Of a DNA stretch of 64,000 bases, positions 3,702-62,369 are shown one piece after another. The stretch is from Patescibacteria group bacterium (GTDB lineage: Bacteria; Patescibacteriota; Patescibacteriia; UBA2196), in contig DAIUDD010000001.1 in the NCBI GenBank assembly GCA_036845805.1, positions 628 through 64,627 on the forward strand, given 5' to 3'. Position numbers and translations under genes: made by a program. The notes under the pieces are model-generated. The model saw only the letters and a list, made by a program, of their open reading frames with translations, was not told the DNA's origin and searched no databases. Positions within the stretch are counted from its first letter, which is position 1, and each line of letters starts with the position of its first letter.

Positions 3702-4436
3702 GTGAAAACTTCAATGGTTGGTATTGGCGCGGTGGAGCTGAAGGCCGTAGCCCAAAAATATATGCTGTGGGCCTTGGTCATTGCTTCACTCATTCATTTG
3801 TCGGTGGTCGGCGCATACTGGGGATCGATTTATCTGGCCAAAGATGAGGAGCCGGTGCGTACTGTCAGAATCATGAAATACACTGACTTGGTTCAGCCGC
3901 CTTCTATTGATCCGACCAGAAATGTGGTGGCGCCAAATGTAGCCATGGCCTCGCCCACGGCTAGGCCCAGCTTGGGAATCCCCGTGCCCGTGCCCGATGC
4001 CGAAGTGAGCCCGGATCAAACTTTTGCTAGTCAACAAGAAATGAATGTCGCCACTGGTCCAGTCACTGATGTGGCCGGATCTGGAGCAGTGCAGATAGAA
4101 AGAGATGTACAAGTTGAAAATATTACCGAAGAGGCACCGCCGCCAGATTTTGTACCGTTTGAGAAAGAACCACAGGTGATCAAACGGATAGAACCGGTTT
4201 ATCCGGAACTGGCGCGCAAAGCCGGTCTCGAAGGCATGGTCTGGGTCAAGCTCTGGGTAGACAAAGAAGGCAAAGTGAAGGATGTGGTTGTCCTGAAAAG
4301 TGCGTCAGAAATTTTCAACCAGCCAGCGATTGAGGCAGCCAAACAATGGATCTTCACGCCAGCCCTCATGAAAACCGGGCCAGTCTCGGTGTGGATCTCT
4401 CTGTCTTTCAGCTTCAAGCTGACGGCGACTAATTGA
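3702..4436 (+). CDS. TonB C-terminal domain protein (energy transducer TonB-like), GC-rich
   Basis: GTG start with aggagg RBS. N-terminal TM segment, Pro-rich linker, and C-terminus PQVIKRIEPVYPELARKAGLEGMVWVKLWVDKEGKVKDVVVLKSASEIFNQPAIEAAKQWIFTPA, the TonB_C fold signature. Confidence 0.65.
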   Translation: MKTSMVGIGAVELKAVAQKYMLWALVIASLIHLSVVGAYWGSIYLAKDEEPVRTVRIMKYTDLVQPPSIDPTRNVVAPNVAMASPTARPSLGIPVPVPDAEVSPDQTFASQQEMNVATGPVTDVAGSGAVQIERDVQVENITEEAPPPDFVPFEKEPQVIKRIEPVYPELARKAGLEGMVWVKLWVDKEGKVKDVVVLKSASEIFNQPAIEAAKQWIFTPALMKTGPVSVWISLSFSFKLTATN

Positions 4437-4482: not shown

Positions 4483-4530
4483 TTTTATTTGCCAAAAGAT
4501 GTTTAAAGTGGAAAAATTAAAGTAGTTGGG
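4483..4530. repeat. ~45-bp direct repeat, copy 2
   Basis: ttttttatttgccaaaagatgtttaaagtggaaaaattaaagta, closely matching 3613-3660. Confidence 0.7.
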
Positions 4531-11712: not shown

Positions 11713-11831
11713 TAAAAATTTAAAATTCAAAAATCAAAAATTAAAATTACAATTTAAAATCATTAAAATTTTTAAAAAATTTTAATACTTTAATTTTGAC
11801 TTTTGCCTTTTAACTTTTGTTTTTATTTTTT

Positions 11832-13079
11832 ATGTCTTTTCTCTCTACTCTCCATATTGCTTATCGTGCTATCAGATTGCACAAAGTCCGTTCGGTTTTA
11901 ACCGTACTCGGTCTTTTAATTGGCGTCATGTCTATTATTATTGTCATGAATGTCGGGCAGGGTTTAAAAGGTTTAATTTTAGATTATATAAAAATTTTTG
12001 GCTCGGATTATGTGCAAGTGGAAACAAAAGTTCCTACTACCGCTAGAAATTCAGCTGACAACGCTACTAGCATGGCCCAAGGCGTGACCGTTACCACTAT
12101 GAAAATTTCTGATGCCGAGGCGGTTGGTCGTCATCCTAATGTCAAAGGCTACTATGCTGGTCAGATGGGCCAGGCCGTGGCTTCCTATTTAGACGAGAAA
12201 AAAACCGCCATGCTTTGGGGTATTTCCAGCAGTTTTTTTACTTTATCTGAAGCCAAGGTGGAAGCGGGTCGCGAATTTAGTGATGAAGAGGATCGTTCTC
12301 AGGCACGGGTAGTTGTTTTGGGCGCCAACTTAAAAGAGAAACTTTTTGGTTCTGATGACGCTTTGGAAAAATATATAAAAATTGGTAATAAAAATTTTAA
12401 AGTTATTGGCGTTTTGGAAAAACAAGGCGGCAGCATGTTTTTTGACATGGATTCAATTGTTTTTATGCCGGTCAGAACTTTGCAAAAACAAATTATGGGT
12501 GTTGATCATATTCAATTTTTTACTGTTTATTTAAAAGATGCCAGTCAGGCCTATGCCACCGCTGCCGAGATCGAAGATATTTTAAGAGCCGAACATAAAA
12601 TTACTGATCCTAAAAAAGATGACTTTTCTGTCACCACTATGGACGAGGCCATGGGCATGTTAAATACTGTCACTGGTGGCATTTCACTTTTGCTTGTTGC
12701 TATTGCCGCTATTTCTTTAATTGTCGGTGGGGTCGGTATTATGAATATTATGTATGTTTCGGTGACTGAGCGTACTTATGAAATTGGTTTAAGAAAAGCC
12801 TTGGGCGCCACTAGCAAAAATATTTTATGGCAATTTTTATGGGAAGCGATTTTTTTAACTTTTTTAGGCGGTTTGATTGGTGTTTTTCTGGGTACGATTT
12901 TTAGTTTTCTCGGCGCCATAGCCGCTAAATCCGCCGGCTTTGATTTGGGCTTGAATTTTTCTTTAACTGGTTTTATTTTAGGCACGGTTTTTTCCGCCAC
13001 GGTCGGTTTGATTTTTGGCGTTTATCCGGCGCGCAAAGCCGCCGCTTTGGATCCGGTCGAAGCGTTGAGACAAGAATAA
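11832..13079 (+). CDS. ABC transporter permease, MacB/FtsX family (paralog)
   Basis: Same architecture, with LIVGGVGIMNIMYVSVTERTYEIGLRKALGA. ATG at 11832 preferred over the upstream TTG. Confidence 0.85.
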   Translation: MSFLSTLHIAYRAIRLHKVRSVLTVLGLLIGVMSIIIVMNVGQGLKGLILDYIKIFGSDYVQVETKVPTTARNSADNATSMAQGVTVTTMKISDAEAVGRHPNVKGYYAGQMGQAVASYLDEKKTAMLWGISSSFFTLSEAKVEAGREFSDEEDRSQARVVVLGANLKEKLFGSDDALEKYIKIGNKNFKVIGVLEKQGGSMFFDMDSIVFMPVRTLQKQIMGVDHIQFFTVYLKDASQAYATAAEIEDILRAEHKITDPKKDDFSVTTMDEAMGMLNTVTGGISLLLVAIAAISLIVGGVGIMNIMYVSVTERTYEIGLRKALGATSKNILWQFLWEAIFLTFLGGLIGVFLGTIFSFLGAIAAKSAGFDLGLNFSLTGFILGTVFSATVGLIFGVYPARKAAALDPVEALRQE

Positions 13080-13253
13080 AATGTATTATGATTTTTGTAG
13101 GGGTGGGTTTAAAACCCACCCTTTTGTTTTTATCAATATTTCAATATTTTATTTGTAGAGACAAAAAATTTTTGCCCTCCTTGCTCCATTTTTATTGAAG
13201 GCGGGGTTCCGGAACCCCGCCTTCACAACAGGACAGCTCCAGAGCCGCTCTAC

Positions 13254-23321: not shown

Positions 23322-23337
23322 GGGTTTTTTGTCCCCT

Positions 23338-23432
23338 CCTTTTCAAGGAGGGGCGGACTCTGATGAAATCAGAGCCGGGGAGGTTAATATATTCGCCGAT
23401 AGGCGTTTTGTCATCCCGCGTCCACGGGATCC
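23338..23432. repeat. Cluster of three hairpins: cccctccttttcaaggagggg, ctctgatgaaatcagag, gtcatcccgcgtccacgggatcc (GTCAT family)
   Basis: Perfect stems, located between the glyS stop and the true start of the next gene. The ORF-track N-terminal extension (23363) reads through them. Confidence 0.6.
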
Positions 23433-26563: not shown

Positions 26564-27256
26564 ATGCTCTACCTTGTTGCCACTCCGATTGGTAATTTAA
26601 AAGATATCACTCTTCGCGCTTTGGAAATTTTAAAGAGTGTTGATTTCATTTTATGCGAGGATACTCGTGTGACCAGAAAACTTCTCGATCATTATGAAAT
26701 AAAAAATAAAAAATTGATTGCTTATCATCATCATACTGATGCTAAAAAAACTGCCGAAATCATTGAATTAATTAAAAATAATAATGTGGCTTTGGTCACC
26801 GATGCGGGCACCCCTGGTATTTCCGATCCCGGCAATATTTTAATTGCCGCGCTTGCAGGGACAGGTTTTGACCTGTCCGCTGTGTCTGTCATTCCTATTC
26901 CCGGTCCCTCTGCTTTAATTACCGCACTTTCTATTTCTGGCTTACCTACAGATAAATTTATTTTTAAAGGTTTTGTGCCGCACAAAAAAGGCCGGGAAAC
27001 TTTTTTAAGACAAGTTTTAGAAGCCAAAGAGACAGTTGTTTTTTATGAATCATGTCATCGAATAATAAAGTGTCTAGAACAATTAAATTTATTTTGTAGG
27101 GACAGGTCTCGACCTGTCCAAATGGTTGTCTGCCGCGAACTGACCAAAAAATTTGAAACTATTTATCGCGGCACTGCCGAAGAAATCCTCGCGCAAATAA
27201 AAAAGGAGTTCCCGAACGGAACCCCAAAAGGTGAATTTGTGATCATTTCACAATAA
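26564..27256 (+). CDS. rsmI: 16S rRNA (cytidine1402-2'-O)-methyltransferase RsmI, with two in-frame palindromic insertions
   Basis: LYLVATPIGNLKDIT, ILCEDTR, DAGTPGISDPG, FYESCHR and RELTKKFE. Insertions at 26858-26878 and 27096-27119 encode GTGFDLS and CRDRSRPVQ. Confidence 0.85.
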   Translation: MLYLVATPIGNLKDITLRALEILKSVDFILCEDTRVTRKLLDHYEIKNKKLIAYHHHTDAKKTAEIIELIKNNNVALVTDAGTPGISDPGNILIAALAGTGFDLSAVSVIPIPGPSALITALSISGLPTDKFIFKGFVPHKKGRETFLRQVLEAKETVVFYESCHRIIKCLEQLNLFCRDRSRPVQMVVCRELTKKFETIYRGTAEEILAQIKKEFPNGTPKGEFVIISQ

Positions 27257-27470: not shown

Positions 27471-28958
27471 ATGTTAAATAAATTCTATCTTACCACCACC
27501 CTGCCATATGTCAATAGCGAACCGCATATTGGTTTTGCTTTGGAAATTATTCAAGCCGATACCATTGCCCGTTGGCAGCGTTTGAATGACAATGAAGTAT
27601 TTTTTAATACTGGCACTGATGAGCATGGTTTAAAAATTTATCGAAAAGCCATGGAAGAGGGCAAAGAACCGCAAGAATATTGTGACGAATATGCGGCCAA
27701 ATTTGATAATTTAAAAAACGCGCTGAATTTAAGTTATAATAATTTTATCCGCACGACCGACAAGCATCATCTAAAAGCAGCGCAAGAATTTTGGCAACGT
27801 TGTGAAAAAAACGGCGACATTTACAAAAAAAACTATCAGGTTAAATATTGTGTCGGCTGCGAATTGGAAAAAACCGAATCGGAATTAGAAAATGACAAAT
27901 GTCCGATTCATCCTAATTTAGAATTAGAATTAATTAATGAAGAAAATTATTTTTTTCGTTTTAGTAAATATCAACAGCCGCTTTTAGATTTATATCATAA
28001 AAATCCAGAATTTGTGGTGCCGGCGCATCGGCTAACCGAAATTAAAAATTTTGTCGCCGCTGGTTTGGAAGATTTTAGCATCTCCCGCCTTAAAGAAAAA
28101 ATGCCTTGGGGTATTAGCGTGCCGGGCGATGAAAATCATGTGATGTATGTTTGGTTTGATGCTCTGATCAATTATATTTCCTGTTTGGGTTGGCCCGAAG
28201 ATGAAAAAAAATTTCAAGAATTTTGGCCAGGGTGTCAGGTTGCGGGCAAAGACAATTTGCGCCAGCAATCGGCCATGTGGCAAGCCATGTTAATGTCTGC
28301 TGGCTTACCGCCATCCAAGCAAATATTTATTCATGGTTTTATTACGGCCAATGGTGAAAAAATGAGTAAATCTCTGGGCAATGTGATTAATCCATTTGAA
28401 TTAGTTAAAAAATTTGGCACTGATGCCGTGCGTTATTATTTGCTGGCTAAAATTTCTCCTTTTGAAGATGGCGATTATACTGAAGAAAAATTTAAAGAAG
28501 CTTATATTGCCGATCTTTGTAATGGTCTTGGCAATCTGGTTTCGCGTGTTTCCAATTTAATTGAAAAGAATGATATTCAAATAGAATGTCATCCTGAGCG
28601 ATTAGCGAAGGATCCCGCATCTTTTCTGTCATCCTCGCGAACGCGAGGATCCCATGGTTTTAAAGATGATCAACTGTCTAAATCATTCTCTGAAAAATTA
28701 GAAAACTATAAATTTAACGAAGCCTTGGAAATTCTTTGGAATAAACTGCGCGCCTGCGATGAAACAGTCACTAAAACTGAACCATGGAAAATTAAAGATC
28801 AAGATAGATTAAAAGAAATTTTAGAACCAATTGCAGAAGATATTTTAAATGTGGCAATTTTACTCCAACCTTTTATGCCCGAAACCGCGGAAAAAATTAA
28901 GGCTACTTTTACCGCAGAAAAAATTAAAAAAAGCGAGCCCTTATTTCCCAGAATATAA
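27471..28958 (+). CDS. metG: Methionine--tRNA ligase, carrying a 66-bp in-frame repeat-element insertion
   Basis: Class I HIGH region (PYVNSEPHIGFA), KMSKS, and zinc knuckles CxxC. The insertion CHPERLAKDPASFLSSSRTRGSHG is encoded by element 28588-28653. Confidence 0.9.
   Translation: MLNKFYLTTTLPYVNSEPHIGFALEIIQADTIARWQRLNDNEVFFNTGTDEHGLKIYRKAMEEGKEPQEYCDEYAAKFDNLKNALNLSYNNFIRTTDKHHLKAAQEFWQRCEKNGDIYKKNYQVKYCVGCELEKTESELENDKCPIHPNLELELINEENYFFRFSKYQQPLLDLYHKNPEFVVPAHRLTEIKNFVAAGLEDFSISRLKEKMPWGISVPGDENHVMYVWFDALINYISCLGWPEDEKKFQEFWPGCQVAGKDNLRQQSAMWQAMLMSAGLPPSKQIFIHGFITANGEKMSKSLGNVINPFELVKKFGTDAVRYYLLAKISPFEDGDYTEEKFKEAYIADLCNGLGNLVSRVSNLIEKNDIQIECHPERLAKDPASFLSSSRTRGSHGFKDDQLSKSFSEKLENYKFNEALEILWNKLRACDETVTKTEPWKIKDQDRLKEILEPIAEDILNVAILLQPFMPETAEKIKATFTAEKIKKSEPLFPRI
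28588..28653 (+). repeat. GTCAT-family double hairpin element inside metG, read in-frame
   Basis: gtcatcctgagcgattagcgaaggatccc + gtcatcctcgcgaacgcgaggatccc. The first unit nearly matches the left arm of the element at 180-210. Confidence 0.7.
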
Positions 28959-29033
28959 TATATTTTGTCATTCCCGACCCGATCGGGAATCAAGAAATTT
29001 TAAAATTTAAAATTTTAAATTTAAAATTATTCT

Positions 29034-29562: not shown

Positions 29563-29642
29563 GTCATGCTGAACTTGATTCAGCATCCCTTTACTTTGAG
29601 ATAATTTTTGATATTTAGATCCCGAAACAAGTTCGGGATGAC
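29563..29642 (+). repeat. GTCAT-family element (two hairpins; termini gtcat...atgac) immediately upstream of tatD
   Basis: gtcatgctgaacttgattcagcatccc ... agatcccgaaacaagttcgggatgac. Confidence 0.65.
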
Positions 29643-29658
29643 AGAACAGGGTTTTGTT

Positions 29659-30624
29659 ATGACCATAATCGACTCCCACTGCCATCTTAATTTTCCCGAA
29701 TATAAAGATGATCAGGAAAATATCATTGCCGATTGCCTAAAAAAAGGGATCGGCCTTATTAACATTGGCACCAGTTTAAAAACTTCGACCGAAGTTTTTA
29801 ATTTAGCCAATCAATACCCAAATAAACCAATCTACGCCGCGATTGGTCTTTATCCCTCACATTGTTCTGATACTGATTATGACGCGCACGAGCAAGCCTT
29901 AAAAGATCCGGACATTTTTTTTAACCCAGCTTTATATCAGAAATTAATTGATGCTGATATAAATAAAAAAATTGTGGCGGTGGGTGAAATTGGTTTGGAA
30001 TATAGTTATGTGCCCTCTGGCCGTGATCTTGCAGAAATAAAAAGTTTGCAAAGACAGGGTTTTATTGATCAATTAAATTTTGCCGGGAAAAATAATCTGC
30101 CAGTAATTCTCCATGCCCGCGGGTCAAAGGAAAAACCAGATGACGCATATGAAGATATGTTAGAAATTTTAACCGCCTTTTTGTCATCCTCGCGAAAGCG
30201 AGGATCCCATGGTTTAGGTGATGAAACACAAGATTCCCGCTGGAGTTTACCCCGTACCGCGATACGGGGCGGGAATGACAGTAACCTAAAAGGCGTTCTT
30301 CATTGTTTTAGTTCAACAATCGAAATCGCTCAAAAATTTCTTGATTTAGGTTTTTATCTTGGTTTTACCGGTATTATTACTTTTAAAAATAAATCTGTTG
30401 ACAATTTGCGGAAAGTTGTTAAACTAATTTCCTTGGAGAAAATTTTAGTCGAAACCGATGCCCCGTATTTAACCCCCGAACCACATCGCGGGGAAATTAA
30501 TAAGCCGCAAAATGTTACTCTAGTGGCGCAAAAAATTGCTGAGCTTAAAAACATTTCTTATGGGGAAGTGTGTAAAATAACCACAAACAATGTTAAAAAT
30601 TTGTTTTTATGTTTTAATGTTTAA
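29659..30624 (+). CDS. tatD: TatD family metal-dependent hydrolase, with a 97-bp in-frame element insertion
   Basis: IDSHCHLNF, VGEIGLEY, ILHARGS, VLHCFSST and ILVETDAPYL. The ~31-aa insertion LSSSRKRGSHG...RGGNDSNLK is encoded by 30183-30279. The start should be the MTIID Met, not the ORF-track 29608. Confidence 0.85.
   Translation: MTIIDSHCHLNFPEYKDDQENIIADCLKKGIGLINIGTSLKTSTEVFNLANQYPNKPIYAAIGLYPSHCSDTDYDAHEQALKDPDIFFNPALYQKLIDADINKKIVAVGEIGLEYSYVPSGRDLAEIKSLQRQGFIDQLNFAGKNNLPVILHARGSKEKPDDAYEDMLEILTAFLSSSRKRGSHGLGDETQDSRWSLPRTAIRGGNDSNLKGVLHCFSSTIEIAQKFLDLGFYLGFTGIITFKNKSVDNLRKVVKLISLEKILVETDAPYLTPEPHRGEINKPQNVTLVAQKIAELKNISYGEVCKITTNNVKNLFLCFNV
30183..30279 (+). repeat. GTCAT-family composite element inside tatD, in-frame
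   Basis: gtcatcctcgcgaaagcgaggatccc...aagattcccgc...ccccgtaccgcgatacgggg cgggaatgac has the same architecture as 56513-56593. Confidence 0.7.
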
Positions 30625-32089: not shown

Positions 32090-32274
32090 TTATCACTCCC
32101 TCTCCTTACGAAGGAGAGGGGTGGGGCGAGGTTAATTTTTTTGACTCTTTACCAAACATCTTTTTTGTCGTAAAATCAAAATTATATAAATGTTGGTTCA
32201 AGGTTGGCATTGGAACTAAAATATTTCACTTTAATTTGTTTTAAATTTAAAATTTTATTATTAATTTTAATTCT

Positions 32275-37399: not shown

Positions 37400-37436
37400 T
37401 TTCGGTCATCATCTGTCTCTATTTTTAAGGCGGCAC

Positions 37437-37472
37437 GTCGACGTGCCGCCTTCCTTTATTTATTAATTTTTT
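37437..37472 (+). terminator. Intrinsic terminator after secF
   Basis: Perfect palindrome aaggcggcacgtcgacgtgccgcctt followed by a T-rich run. Confidence 0.6.
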
Positions 37473-38754: not shown

Positions 38755-38855
38755 TTAACATGGCTGCCGAGCAATCGGTGTCTTTTCTATTTAATATTTT
38801 TGAAGGCGAGGTTCCAGAACCTCGCCTTCATTGTTTATTAGCCATCTATTCTTAA

Positions 38856-42264: not shown

Positions 42265-42693
42265 ATGAAAATCCTTGCTCTCGACTATGGCGTTAAAAAT
42301 ATTGGCCTTGCCCTCACCGATGTTGAGGGCAATTTTGCTTTTGCCTATGACACCTTGCGCGTAGAGACACAAAATTTTGCGTCTCTACAAAAAATAATTG
42401 CTGATTTAAAAAATATTTGTGCTAAAGAAAAAGTGGAGAAAATAATTATTGGCTTGCCCGTACAATTATCTGGAGAAAATAGTTCTGCTACTGTGGCCGT
42501 GTTTGAGTTTGTTAAACAACTAGAGCAGGGGATAGGTTTGCCAGTAGAAACCATTGATGAGCGCTGGAGCACCATGCAAGCTCACAAAATTAGTAGGGAC
42601 AGGTCGCGACCTGTCCGTGCCAATAATATCGATGCTCTTTCCGCCCAAATTTTATTGCAAGGGTATTTAGAAAAAATAAGAATTACTAATTAA
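42265..42693 (+). CDS. ruvX: Putative pre-16S rRNA nuclease / Holliday junction resolvase-like RuvX (YqgF), with in-frame 24-bp palindrome
   Basis: MKILALDYGVKNIGLALTD and RNase H-like fold. The insertion SRDRSRPVR is encoded by 42593-42616. Confidence 0.8.
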   Translation: MKILALDYGVKNIGLALTDVEGNFAFAYDTLRVETQNFASLQKIIADLKNICAKEKVEKIIIGLPVQLSGENSSATVAVFEFVKQLEQGIGLPVETIDERWSTMQAHKISRDRSRPVRANNIDALSAQILLQGYLEKIRITN

Positions 42694-51024: not shown

Positions 51025-51082
51025 TTTTTTATCTCCTCCTTTTTAAGGAGGAGTGGTCCGATATAAAATCGGACCGAGGTGG

Positions 51083-51475: not shown

Positions 51476-51614
51476 CCACCCCCCCGACAGTGCTATGCTT
51501 GTCGGATACCCCTCCTTGAAAAGGAGGGGATAGAATCTCCCCGAATCAAAAAAACCCATATACCAATGGGTTTTGTTATTCATAATTCTTAATTCATTAT
51601 TCCAAATTCATATC

Positions 51615-56500: not shown

Positions 56501-56512
56501 TTAATTTTTTGT

Positions 56513-56593
56513 GTCATCCCCGCGTAAGCGGGGATCTCGTGAACCAAGAGTTTGTAACAAAGATTCTGGGATTCCCGCTTTCGCGGGAATGAC
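56513..56593 (+). repeat. GTCAT-family composite element (termini gtcatcc...gggaatgac)
   Basis: gtcatccccgcgtaagcggggatc...aagattc...gggattcccgctttcgcgggaatgac. The ORF-track reads it as an N-terminal extension of nfu. Confidence 0.7.
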
Positions 56594-56603
56594 AATAATA
56601 TTT

Positions 56604-58570: not shown

Positions 58571-59263
58571 ATGAGTGATAATCTCGCAAAAAATTTAATT
58601 ATCAAAGTAGGGGACAGAGAATTTTCGCGTTATCCTCTTAAAACCCATTTAATTACCAAAGATGATCAGCTGGCTGATGTCATTGAAAAATATGTGCTGC
58701 CGGTTTCACAAATTGGCGATATGATTGTGATGTCCGAGCGCATGGTAGCTATTACCCAAGGGCGCCTGATTCACGAAAGCGAAATTAAAGCTTCTTTTCT
58801 GGCAAAATTTTTAATTAAATTTGTAAAAAAGTGGCCTAATGATCCGGGATTTCGCAATGCCAAAAAAATGCAAGTGGCGATTAATATGATTGGCTACCCG
58901 AGAATTTTATTAGCTGCCCTAGTGAGCGCCCTAACCAAGCCTTTTGGCATCCGCGGTCTGTTTTATAAAATCTGCGGCCACGAAGTCGCCGAAATTGACG
59001 GCTTTGCCCAAGGTACTATTCCACCCTATGATCAATATGCGGTTCTTGGGCCAAAAGACCCCGCCGGTGTTTGTGAAGATTTAAAACAGAAATTTAATTT
59101 GGACTTTGCTATTGTCGATGCTAATAATATTGATGTCGCAATTCTCGGCACGAGTAAAAATTTTCCTCTGACTCATGCTGATTTACGCCTTGCTTTTATT
59201 GATAACCCAATTGGTCAAGGTTTAGAGCAAACTCCAATTTGTATTGTAAGAGAAAAAGTATAA
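58571..59263 (+). CDS. CofE-like (F420-0:gamma-glutamyl ligase family) protein
   Basis: GDMIVMSERMVAITQGR and VDANNIDVAILG resemble the CofE/FbiB N-terminal domain. Tentative. Confidence 0.4.
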   Translation: MSDNLAKNLIIKVGDREFSRYPLKTHLITKDDQLADVIEKYVLPVSQIGDMIVMSERMVAITQGRLIHESEIKASFLAKFLIKFVKKWPNDPGFRNAKKMQVAINMIGYPRILLAALVSALTKPFGIRGLFYKICGHEVAEIDGFAQGTIPPYDQYAVLGPKDPAGVCEDLKQKFNLDFAIVDANNIDVAILGTSKNFPLTHADLRLAFIDNPIGQGLEQTPICIVREKV

Positions 59264-59264
59264 T

Positions 59265-59295
59265 GTAGGGACAGGTCGCGACCTGTCCTGTTTTT
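59265..59295 (+). terminator. Intrinsic terminator formed by the 20-bp palindrome GGACAGGTCGCGACCTGTCC plus T-tract
   Basis: gtagggacaggtcgcgacctgtcctgtttttt lies 2 nt after the stop of the 58571-59263 gene. The same palindrome occurs inside rsmI and ruvX. Confidence 0.7.
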
Positions 59296-59494
59296 TATCC
59301 TTGCCTTTTGAAGGCGGGGTAGGGGGTTTATTTTAAAATAAAACACCGCCCCGACAAATGTTGTCGGGACGGTCAAACTCATTTCATGTATGCGGGTGTG
59401 GCAGAAATGTCACAGCCCGTCTCCACCTCTTCCATGGGCTTAATGATTCCTGCCCACAAAAAAAATCGGCAAAGGCGGAGTCGAAATTTTTTTC

Positions 59495-60247: not shown

Positions 60248-61507
60248 ATGGATCTCTTTACTGATCATTATCAAAAAAATTGGCGCACTACCGCTCCTTT
60301 AGCCGAACGGCTTCGACCAACAAAACTGGAAGATTTTGTTGGGCAAGAAGAAATTGTCGGCCCCAATTCTTTATTACGAAAAGATATTGCTGCCAATCAG
60401 TTAAGTTCTTTAATTTTTTGGGGCCCGCCCGGGAGTGGTAAAACTACGCTAGCGACCGTGATTGCCAATTTGACCAAATCTTTTTTTATTGAAATTTCAG
60501 CCGTCTCTGCTGGCATTACTGATTTACGCACCGCGATTAAGCAAGCCGCTGACCAAATAAAATTTTATCAGCGTCCAACAATTTTATTTGTTGATGAAAT
60601 TCATCGCTGGAATAAAGCCCAGCAAGATGCTCTCTTGCCTTATGTGGAAAAGGGTCTGATAATTTTAATTGGTGCGACCACTGAAAATCCTTCTTTTGAA
60701 GTGATTGCCCCTTTATTGTCTCGGGTTAGAATTTTTACTCTAAAACCTCTCACGCCCTTAAATTTAAAAATTATTATTAATCGAGCCCTAAAAGACGAAA
60801 TTAACGGTCTTGGTAAATATCGGGCCAAAATAGATCCAGCAGCAGAAAATTTTTTAATTCAAACCAGCAATGGTGATGCGCGTGTTATGCTTAATGTTTT
60901 GGAAGTTGCTATTAAAAATTGCGCTTTAGATAAATTTGATGAGCGTCTGATTGATATTAATTTAATTTCCGAAGCTTTTCAACATCCACCACTTAAATAT
61001 GATAAATCTGGCGAAGAACATTATAATGTTATTTCTGCTTTTATTAAATCAATGCGCGGTTCAGATGTTGATGCTGCTCTTTATTGGTTGGCGCGCTTAC
61101 TTACCGCTGGCGAAGATCCAAAATTTATTGCTCGGCGGATGATTATTTTTTCTTCGGAAGATATTGGTAATGCCGACTCTATGGCTCTCGTGGTAGCCAA
61201 TGCCGTTTTTTCGGCTGTAGAAAAAATTGGTTTGCCCGAATGCCGTATTAATTTGGCCCAGGGGGTGGTTTATTTAGCCAAGGCACCCAAGTCTAACAAG
61301 TCCTATCTTGGTCTTTTAAACGCCGAGGCCGAAGTGAAACAAAGTTTAAACTTGCCCGTGCCTTTGCATTTGCGTAATGCCGTCACCAATTTAATGAAAG
61401 AATGGGGTTATGGCGAGAATTATAAATATCCGCATTTGGAAGATGATTCAGCGCAAAAATATCTGCCGGATAAGTTGATTGGCAAAAAATTTTATCATGA
61501 TTTGTAA
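60248..61507 (+). CDS. rarA: Replication-associated recombination protein A (RarA/MgsA AAA+ ATPase)
   Basis: RPTKLEDFVGQEEIVG, Walker A GPPGSGKTTLA, FVDEIHRWNKAQQD and the MgsA C-terminal domain. Confidence 0.9.
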   Translation: MDLFTDHYQKNWRTTAPLAERLRPTKLEDFVGQEEIVGPNSLLRKDIAANQLSSLIFWGPPGSGKTTLATVIANLTKSFFIEISAVSAGITDLRTAIKQAADQIKFYQRPTILFVDEIHRWNKAQQDALLPYVEKGLIILIGATTENPSFEVIAPLLSRVRIFTLKPLTPLNLKIIINRALKDEINGLGKYRAKIDPAAENFLIQTSNGDARVMLNVLEVAIKNCALDKFDERLIDINLISEAFQHPPLKYDKSGEEHYNVISAFIKSMRGSDVDAALYWLARLLTAGEDPKFIARRMIIFSSEDIGNADSMALVVANAVFSAVEKIGLPECRINLAQGVVYLAKAPKSNKSYLGLLNAEAEVKQSLNLPVPLHLRNAVTNLMKEWGYGENYKYPHLEDDSAQKYLPDKLIGKKFYHDL

Positions 61508-61612
61508 CTCCGAACTTTAGTTCGGATAGTTTTTATCATGATTTGTAACTCCGAACTTTAGTTCGGATAGTTGTTATATCTTGTAACTCCGAACTTTAGT
61601 TCGGAATTCATA
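61504..61612 (+). repeat. Three tandem REP hairpins (tgtaactccgaactttagttcgga), including a duplication of the last rarA codons
   Basis: The 41-bp unit tttatcatgatttgtaactccgaactttagttcggatagtt is repeated. Palindromic core ccgaact-tt-agttcgg. A fourth copy lies at 62346-62369. Confidence 0.8.
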
Positions 61613-61616
61613 ATAT

Positions 61617-62093
61617 ATGAAATATCTAAATTTACCCATACGCCCGCGCTTACCACACACAGAATATATCGGTCAAAAAAGATATTTTATTACTATTAAT
61701 TCTTTTAATCGAAAAAACTATTTTGTTGATAAAAAAATAATTTCTTTTATAAAACCTCATTTGTTTGAAAGTTTAAAGAGTTATAATTTTGAAGTTTGGA
61801 TTTTTCTTTTTATGCCCGATCATTTGCATCTATTATTAGAAGCTAAAGATATAAATTGTAATTTAGAAAATTTTATTAAAGATTTTAAACAAAAATCTAG
61901 TTATTGTTTTAAAAAAATTTTTCGGCAAAGATTATGGGCCAAAAGTTATTGGGATCATATTTTAAGAAAAGACGAGGATATTACCGGTATAGTTTATTAT
62001 ATTTTGTATAATCCCGTGAGAAAAGGATTGATTAAGGACTGGAAGGAATATCAATGGTGGGGTTCCACGCTTTTTAAAAAAGATGAATTTTAA
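61617..62093 (+). CDS. REP-associated tyrosine transposase (RAYT; IS200/IS605 TnpA-like, Y1 HUH)
   Basis: HUH motif MPDHLHLLLEA and catalytic Tyr motif YILYNPVRKGL; 158 aa; flanked by REPs. Confidence 0.8.
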   Translation: MKYLNLPIRPRLPHTEYIGQKRYFITINSFNRKNYFVDKKIISFIKPHLFESLKSYNFEVWIFLFMPDHLHLLLEAKDINCNLENFIKDFKQKSSYCFKKIFRQRLWAKSYWDHILRKDEDITGIVYYILYNPVRKGLIKDWKEYQWWGSTLFKKDEF

Positions 62094-62345
62094 TCCCATC
62101 TAAAGATGGGAGTTACATTCCGGCCTAAAGGCCGGAGTTACATTTTAAAAACCACCACGCGTTGACATGATGGTTTTTTTAATCTTCACCTTACCCCCTG
62201 TTAGCGCAAGATCAAAACAGGAAAACCTGCTTAACCTTGACTTAGACTACTCGATCTAGCTAGGAGGAAGCCGTCACTTTGGTCACTAAACAAGGGGAAA
62301 GGTAAAGATTATGATTTTGAACCTTTGTTCAGAAGTATTATGTCT

Positions 62346-62369
62346 TGTAACTCCGAACTTTAGTTCGGA
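62346..62369 (+). repeat. REP copy downstream of the RAYT gene
   Basis: tgtaactccgaactttagttcgga. Confidence 0.8.

Follow-up and report, generated by a model that had tools for sequence, protein, structure and literature searches.

A GTAG-tagged palindrome within rsmI and ruvX and behind a third gene of a Patescibacteria genome: a likely REP element with a proposed RAYT-like partner clade

Four copies of one short GC-rich palindrome lie in a 64-kb stretch of DNA from a Patescibacteria group bacterium (positions 628 to 64,627 of contig DAIUDD010000001.1, assembly GCA_036845805.1; the whole stretch is called the window below). Two are found within rsmI, one within ruvX and one directly behind a gene for an F420-0:gamma-glutamyl-ligase-like protein (Table 1), which raises the question of what kind of element can be read as part of two proteins and also stand as a hairpin at the end of a third gene. 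Since a GTAG tag followed by a short perfect palindrome is the published definition of a repetitive extragenic palindromic (REP) sequence (PMC8266576; PMC3733652), the element is identified as REP-type. We consider it likely that the palindrome is a GTAG-tagged REP element of the family GTAG-GGACAGGTCGCGACCTGTCC(-CTAC), that its partner is a distinct clade of REP-associated tyrosine transposase (RAYT)-like proteins of the HUH/Tyr (Y1) type, and that its copies are tolerated in loops and spacers.

Four copies in the window and the proteins that contain them

The stem pattern GGACAGGT-NNNN-ACCTGTCC matches the window four times (at the starts of the 20-mers given in Table 1), which corresponds to a density of about one per 16 kb, and every copy is a singleton with its tag side on the plus strand. 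An earlier reading made from the sequence only had described a perfect 20-bp palindrome preceded by GTAG at four places, one of them given as a variant; the number four stands, but only copies 3 and 4 are perfect 20-mers, the other two being variants with intact 8-bp stems, and GTAG precedes three of the four, with GCAG in front of copy 1. The count is beyond chance: across 100 dinucleotide-preserving shuffles the expected number of matches was 0.00 for the 20-mer with three or fewer mismatches allowed and 0.06 when only the stems had to match, and no shuffle reached four. Because the GC content of the window is only about 36%, the copies form conspicuous GC-rich islands, with stems of 8–10 bp around a centre of 0–4 nt and RNA folds of -13.6 to -18.7 kcal/mol (z -2.6 to -5.1). 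The two copies in rsmI, which are 241 nt apart, point the same way and do not pair into the hairpin of an inverted doublet. The next 8 kb beyond the right end of the window contain no further copy, and a search of Rfam at gathering thresholds returned five tRNAs only and no RNA family at the palindrome copies.

The coding copies use both stop-free reading frames of the element, the third frame containing the TAG of the tag. Copy 1, in which the stems are perfect and the tag and loop have diverged, is read as GTA GGG ACA GGT ... and gives AGTGFDLS in RsmI, while the frame AGG GAC AGG TCG CGA CCT GTC gives (C)RDRSRPV(Q) for copy 2 and (S)RDRSRPV(R) for copy 3 in RuvX, so that the peptides CRDRSRPVQ and SRDRSRPVR are just those read before. 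These peptides are confirmed as lineage-specific inserts in predicted loops and not conserved protein motifs. Among 37 RsmI orthologs from Kuenenbacteria-like Patescibacteria (216–273 aa), RDRS(R/G)PV is present in five only, and RDRSRPV is present in only 2 of 32 RuvX orthologs; the possibility raised at the outset, that RDRSRPV is conserved in the orthologs of unrelated bacteria, thus falls, as the motif is absent from most of those aligned. VGTG(R/L/F)(D/N)L occurs at the copy 1 site in the RsmI orthologs P0007, P0013, P0014 and P0015, and other RsmI orthologs have no insert or unrelated sequence at the insert sites: P0017 is four codons shorter at the copy 2 site, and P0002, the sister of the RsmI in the window, has a different palindrome there, read as HSRESGNP. 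The closest RuvX ortholog (P0122, 82% identity) lacks the insert and is five codons shorter, its loop being the usual short one, and in P0123 (68% identity) the palindrome stands exactly at the nucleotide position of copy 3. In the AlphaFold2 model of RsmI, the copy 1 peptide (residues 98–105) covers the end of helix 89–101 and the coil before strand 109–112, and the copy 2 peptide (residues 178–186) is placed in the coil between helix 167–178 and strand 187–192. The copy 3 peptide (residues 111–117 of the RuvX model) lies in the coil between helices 102–110 and 122–141, with the lowest predicted local distance difference test (pLDDT) values of that model.

The same places are also filled by other sequences. 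Three positions in RsmI and two in RuvX hold other palindrome-derived peptides in other lineages (VETRHCLVS, VGAIHELP, VGAYCNTPLP, CHSRESGNP... and YPVK...FDRVK), so the palindrome is one of several families at equal hot spots of the two genes. A second GTAG...CTAC palindrome is present in the ruvX of the window itself, at codons where P0122 has GTAGAGACGCGCCGTGGCGCGTCTCTAC. The HSRESGNP inserts of the RsmI and RuvX orthologs derive from a family with the tag TGTCAT, which is described below.

Copy 4 is the one extragenic copy. Its GTAG begins 1 nt past the TAA stop codon (59261–63), not 2 nt as given previously, and the T6 noted behind it is there, with TG in between. A terminator scan lists the site with nine pairs (five GC), a loop of 4 nt and the tail GTTTTTTATC, and its RNA hairpin with context folds at -14.8 kcal/mol; it thus has the anatomy of an intrinsic terminator, a GC-rich stem-loop followed by a U-tract at the 3' end of a gene. 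The T-run is absent from the intragenic copies, as had been stated. It is not part of the repeat and belongs to the local context of copy 4: a T-rich run stands beside 8 of the 145 copies in other genomes among the matches listed, and none of 19 relatives of the F420-ligase-like gene (37–80% identity) has the palindrome downstream, several of them having ordinary hairpin and T-run terminators instead. These two results make the terminator one local context and not a second function of the family. Thus, the proposal that one sequence serves as a coding insert or as a terminator depending on its context holds for the translation in rsmI and ruvX and for the anatomy of copy 4, but not for termination as a property of the family; judged by its hairpin and U-tract, copy 4 is plausibly a predicted terminator of transcription, which would be a feature of this site. 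A second REP-type hairpin with a T-run is found in the window at 13097–13131, where GTAG-GGGTGGGTTTAAAACCCACCC, with TTTTGTTTTT behind it, lies some 20 nt past the gene at 11817–13079.

Distribution in other genomes and the RAYT-like clade

A scan of one genome per species with the query GTAGGGACAGGTNNNNACCTGTCC, in which one GTAG tag was required, gave at least 120 stretches, and the results on other genomes given here are for the 120 loci listed. The hosts belong to about ten phyla with genome GC contents of 31–66%, including at least 13 Pontibacter species, other Bacteroidota, several Patescibacteria lineages, Nitrospinota, Methylococcaceae, Desulfuromonadaceae, Omnitrophota, Fibrobacter, Spirochaetia, Zixibacteria and Ignavibacteriales, and cultured isolates are among them. 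Identical 24–28-mers occur in different phyla. Of 145 copies, 115 have the centre CGCG and 30 are the full 28-bp palindrome GTAG...CTAC, the latter count being biased by the requirement for one tag. The copies stand in varied contexts (within coding sequence, between genes, in tandem or as part of longer repeats); no shared flanking sequence was found around them, nor a common target in the 5' flanks of 167 copies. Viral contigs contained the palindrome in six stretches only, and there is no sign of phages as the main carriers. BLAST of the window against the 120 loci gave no overlap, so the source genome is not among them.

Several local arrangements were noted in this set. Longer conserved repeats of at least three types enclose the palindrome in Pontibacter, with about 30–40 conserved bases on each side (type 1: L001, L030, L037, L052, L056, L067 and L074–L076; type 2: L014, L016, L020, L032, L038, L040, L060 and L098; type 3: L035, L039, L047, L051, L057 and L113), which may be composite elements or structured RNAs. 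Metagenome-assembled genomes of Bacteroidota contain tandem arrays of the palindrome (L027 1886–2173, L069 4342–4923 and L033 6609–7437), with constant spacers at periods of 44/88 nt in L027 and 279 nt in L069; as the spacers are identical, the arrays are not CRISPR-like. At Nitrospinota loci, the TGTCAT-tagged family adjoins the GGACAGG palindrome.

All-against-all clustering of the open reading frames (ORFs) within 2.5 kb of the copies returned one recurrent protein family only, which is RAYT-like. It was found at eight loci by clustering and at two more by tblastn, that is at 10 of the 120 loci, with the pattern NRLxGYDYS...MPNHIHGIIEI...KIKSLSE...WQRSFHDHIIR. Against NF047646 (REP_Tyr_transpos), the clade has E values of 1e-15 to 1e-17, and many members bear the JGI name 'REP element-mobilizing transposase RayT'. 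A single sequence of the family had no match among the solved structures; a profile of members without the palindrome motif had as its best match 4ER8, the TnpA_REP of E. coli (E 2.7e-5), with PNHiHgi aligned on PEHMHCI (the HUH motif) and eYIknNP on DYIYINP (the Tyr). In the isolate Pontibacter oryzae (L113), two inverted copies bracket the RAYT-like ORF at 18 nt from each end with their tags toward the gene, and this locus is a classical REPtron, in which a transposase gene stands between copies of its REP.

Most of the close clade members have the palindrome within the transposase ORF, in the loop just after the HUH strand (PNHxHGIIEI), where it is read as VGTGRDLSL; these copies are often tandem or partial, and at times two further sites are occupied. 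The translated palindrome is present in 110 of the 120 best homologs, a proportion biased by a query that held the motif. A query without the motif gave 12,057 relatives at E<=1e-10, and 31 of the best 150 cluster representatives carry peptides of the palindrome. Many other representatives have peptides of other GTAG palindromes in the post-HUH loop, such as VGNGRDRSLQ, GGSRTAPT, VGAIHESPLQ, RGELHSP and more. Moreover, two sister subclades (loci L156 and L157) have a palindrome of their own both within and just upstream of the gene. The type of palindrome therefore co-varies with the RAYT subclade, as is expected for cognate pairs.

Weighing the explanations

By analogy with the biochemistry of TnpA_REP of E. 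coli (PMC8266576), the RAYT-like enzyme would bind the hairpin as a folded single strand, make use of its GTAG and cut next to it, and such cutting could spread or homogenise the copies. Selection would presumably remove those copies that put TAG in frame or disturb folded regions, leaving loops and sites behind stop codons. An AT-rich Kuenenbacteria-like Patescibacteria genome might thus retain copies only where they are harmless: intragenic survivors would be in one of the two TAG-free frames, in surface loops, at a net cost of 4–5 codons and read as RDRSRPV or GTGxDLS, and copies behind genes would lie in spacers. That the RAYT-like enzyme mobilises the palindrome, and which enzyme acts in this genome, we infer from the linkage and the analogy.

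Several observations weigh against this explanation. Two members of the RAYT-like clade score 58 and 63 bits, under the NCBIfam NF047646 cutoff of 80 bits, and a search of the window and of the 8 kb beyond its right end found no cognate gene of the clade. The window has a RAYT of its own, which passes the cutoff (96.5 bits) and has a match to 4ER8 at E 3.6e-8. Its identity to the palindrome-linked clade is only 25–29%, and the hairpins on either side of it are of another kind, TGTAAC-TCCGAACTTTAGTTCGGA; this RAYT is unlikely to be the partner of the GGACAGG palindrome. The net gain of 4–5 codons (+12 to +15 nt) in the genes is smaller than the 8-codon element (a 24–28-nt unit), so that no clean empty site was recovered, and the comparison of filled with empty sites gave neither a target duplication nor a target motif, nor differences in length that were multiples of the unit. 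In addition, three of the four copies in the window are intragenic, which is atypical for REPs. In a neighbour-joining tree of RsmI, from which the hot-spot columns had been removed and which has no bootstrap, the carriers of RDRSRPV fall in three separate clades, and their copies have exactly equal boundaries in all three, a pattern that inheritance and conservation explain no worse than repeated transposition does.

A wider version of the REP explanation would be that this one REP and the divergent RAYT-like clade form a promiscuous and still active REPtron across about ten phyla, that the palindrome is near-invariant in essential genes by ongoing conversion or selection, that it is kept in the transposase's own ORF with the hairpin as a possible self-recognition or autoregulatory site, and that competing palindrome families re-write the loops of core proteins in Patescibacteria. 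We put this forward only tentatively and think it rather doubtful as a whole.

The constancy of the palindrome could also mean that the hairpin is kept for a function of the host at the level of DNA or RNA, for example in mRNA stabilisation or pausing, as a protein-binding site or as a replication or recombination signal, with the rsmI and ruvX copies being old, inherited and conserved and not selfish DNA that moved of late; we regard this as unlikely. The rsmI orthologs are 70–75% identical in nucleotides and 55–61% identical at synonymous third positions, and the palindromes at the rsmI site C are identical at 23–26 of 27 positions with nucleotide-exact boundaries, a weak test as it involves nine third positions only. 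At site B of rsmI the stems remain perfect or G-U paired while the loops differ (TTTG, CTTG, CTTA and CGCG), and the 28-mer is identical across phyla of widely different GC content. Such constancy is compatible with an inherited copy that was conserved or converted, or with insertion that recurred at a specific site. However, the presence of the palindrome is patchy, with three carrier clades whose sisters have nothing or a different palindrome at the spot, the closest RuvX ortholog is without the insert, copies elsewhere have inconsistent contexts, and the linkage to the RAYT-like clade accounts for the constancy of the sequence without a function for the host.

It is improbable, in our view, that no transposase was involved and that the copies arose through gene conversion, or through template switching among existing palindromes at replication, with the RAYT-like genes just one more favoured target. 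Net changes that differ from the length of the unit, partial or tandem half-copies such as VRDLSVRDLSLRDLSL, which are common in the RAYT-like loops and look like slippage, and the replacement of one palindrome family by another at equal hot spots would all agree with such an origin, but they are set against the complete REPtron of Pontibacter oryzae with its inverted tagged copies, the co-variation of palindrome type and RAYT subclade within and upstream of the gene, and the strict conservation of the GTAG tag, which TnpA_REP requires (PMC8266576).

A signal for DNA uptake, like the DNA uptake sequence (DUS) of Neisseria or the uptake signal sequence (USS) of Haemophilus, is very hard to defend. 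The DUS and USS also occur within genes and as terminator hairpins, are lineage-specific and number roughly one per kb. Although the palindrome resembles them in that it is found within coding sequence as well as at a terminator-like site, and one of its host genes, ruvX, serves genome maintenance, its density is far from theirs, its hosts are spread over about ten phyla and not one lineage, and it is linked to a transposase family and not to competence genes. We give a negligible probability to a repeat that arose by chance or from base composition, to conservation as a protein motif and to an artefact of assembly, since only the shortness of the sequence speaks for them, and against them stand the shuffles, the absence of the motif from most orthologs, the cultured isolates and the match of the window to two independent public assemblies at 100% identity over 12.4 kb with copy 4 included. 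A CRISPR-type array and an operator site were rejected as readings of the palindrome.

The window also contains other palindromes (Table 1). The stretch 61503–62369, which includes the window's own RAYT, is a complete REPtron of a different family. A third family has the tag TGTCAT (ATCCTCGCG..CGCGAGGAT, ATTCCCG..CGGGAAT), and two of its copies are in frame in the ORFs 27471–28958 and 29608–30624, where they are read as LSSSR(T/K)RGSH. Long perfect palindromes lie between genes and are probably the first family to which the earlier reading alludes when it calls the present one a second palindrome. Further perfect hairpins combine an anti-Shine-Dalgarno arm with AAGGAGG(G/A)G; one of these (23333–23353) ends 9 nt ahead of the ATG at 23363, so that the ribosome-binding site would be sequestered. 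Altogether 40 GC-rich perfect hairpins with a stem of at least 7 bp were found in the 64 kb, where mononucleotide shuffles gave about four. Several distinct families of palindromes are unusually well represented in this small AT-rich genome.

Table 1. Positions of the palindromes, their host genes and related features (in the window unless a locus is named)
Feature	Position	Strand	Remarks
rsmI, 16S rRNA (cytidine1402-2'-O)-methyltransferase	26564..27256	+	Pfam TP_methylase E 1.4e-32; name from database sources; hosts copies 1 and 2
Copy 1	26855..26878 (20-mer 26859-26878)	+	GCAG + GGACAGGT-TTTG-ACCTGTCC, in frame in rsmI
Copy 2	27096..27119 (20-mer 27100-27119)	+	GTAG + GGACAGGTCTCGACCTGTCC, centre CTCG, one mismatch, in frame in rsmI
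ruvX (YqgF-type nuclease)	42265..42693	+	Pfam RuvX E 2e-33; database protein P0121 begins MKIL; hosts copy 3
Second GTAG...CTAC palindrome in ruvX	42361-42388		GTAGAGACACAAAATTTTGCGTCTCTAC, in frame, reads VETQNFASL
Copy 3	42593..42616 (20-mer 42597-42616)	+	GTAG + perfect GGACAGGTCGCGACCTGTCC, in frame in ruvX
F420-0:gamma-glutamyl-ligase-like gene	58571..59263	+	Pfam F420_ligase E 1.3e-07; copy 4 at its 3' end
Copy 4	59265..59288 (20-mer 59269-59288)	+	GTAG + perfect palindrome, extragenic, behind the F420-ligase-like gene
T-run	59289..59296	+	TG + T6 (T6 = 59291-59296) directly after copy 4; terminator-like site jointly with copy 4
Window RAYT	61617-62093		ORF
TGTAAC-TCCGAACTTTAGTTCGGA copies	61503-61526, 61544-61567, 61582-61605; 62346-62369		First three upstream, last one downstream of the window RAYT
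Inverted-type hairpins	62094-62117, 62119-62142		End in GTTACA
TGTCAT family	28627-28654, 30182-30209, 28966-28990, 29619-29644, 56512-56540, 56571-56595
Long perfect intergenic palindromes	13196-13225, 38801-38830, 37427-37452		TGAAGGCGGGGTTCC/GGAACCCCGCCTTCA, TGAAGGCGAGGTTC..GAACCTCGCCTTCA, AAGGCGGCACGTC/GACGTGCCGCCTT
Perfect hairpins with anti-Shine-Dalgarno arm	23333-23353, 32098-32120, 51033-51053, 51509-51529		As CCCCTCCTT-nnn-AAGGAGGGG
L156 subclade palindromes	1502-1529, 1816-1843 (locus L156)		GTAGGGCACGGTCGCGACCGTGCCCTAC and GTAGGGAACGGTCGCGACCGTTCCCTAC
L157 subclade palindromes	3927-3946, 4264-4283, 4501-4520 (locus L157)		GGGCGGTTCGCGAACCGCCC

Relation to known repeats

GTAG REPs have been reported from more than 80 species of eight phyla, with families common to distant organisms (Di Nocera et al. 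2013, PMC3733652); their tags supply stop codons, some lie wholly within ORFs, often of DNA repair genes, and different REPs occupy about one site in the recB of Xanthomonas (PMC3733652). TnpA_REP requires the GTAG motif (Corneloup et al. 2021, PMC8266576), and the same paper describes the way in which REPs spread as still unresolved. The model of RAYTs and REPINs (inverted REP doublets) stresses vertical inheritance (PMC5581495). As intragenic GTAG REPs are already described (PMC3733652), the kind of element is known, and what is new is this sequence family and its spread. The palindrome sequence and its peptides (GTGRDLS, RDRSRPV and others) were in no paper found by full-text search, and the literature on candidate phyla gave nothing specific on palindromic inserts. 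The literature searched thus describes neither the sequence family, nor the hot spots in core genes of Patescibacteria, nor a near-invariance over about ten phyla, nor a cognate palindrome that is habitually in the RAYT-like ORF; all four are side observations made among the matches listed.

The family offers a handle on the spread of REPs, as it combines a perfectly palindromic, sharply defined substrate with a partner clade of thousands of members, cultivable hosts such as Pontibacter and natural contrasts of presence and absence in conserved genes. For the annotation of candidate phyla, it explains odd GC-rich peptides such as RDRSRPV, VGTGRDLS and HSRESGNP as well as length variation of core proteins, and it is a warning that segments of the RDRSRPV type are derived from repeats and are not functional motifs.

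Copy 4 is like an intrinsic (Rho-independent) terminator in its GC-rich stem of 8–9 bp, its loop of 4 nt and its U-tract 1–2 nt past the stem behind a stop codon, and unlike an ordinary one in that the hairpin comes from a repeat and that neither the other three copies nor about 95% of the listed copies elsewhere have a U-tract. Rickettsia palindromic elements (RPE) are about 100–150 bp long and specific to Rickettsia, unlike the unit in the window, which has 24–28 nt, is GTAG-tagged and is linked to RAYT-like genes. In the account of PMC3733652, RPE are selfish DNA and are also palindromes in frame in conserved protein genes that are tolerated as an extra peptide. RAYTs are the presumed mobilising enzymes of REPINs as well (Bertels and Rainey 2011, PMC3116915), but REPINs are doublets, whereas the copies in the window are singletons, and the sharing of the palindrome across phyla suggests horizontal spread, unlike the vertical inheritance stressed in the RAYT-REPIN model. 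Compared with typical REPs, which are mainly extragenic and downstream of ORFs, the window is unusual in its intragenic copies, although intragenic REPs are documented (PMC3733652); it also differs from the known REPtrons in that the host is a Patescibacteria genome of less than 1 Mb, that one sequence is common to many phyla and that the cognate gene was not seen in the window, and the partner clade differs from known RAYTs in being divergent, under the NCBIfam cutoff and usually with copies in its own ORF. Features common to the element and the REP/RAYT REPtrons (PMC3733652, PMC8266576) are a GC-rich perfect palindrome of 20–28 nt, here in four copies in the window, whose loop is short and whose 5' GTAG is unpaired, often just past stop codons and occasionally intragenic and translated, a gene for an HUH/Tyr transposase bracketed by inverted copies, and subfamilies that differ through compensatory changes in the stem.

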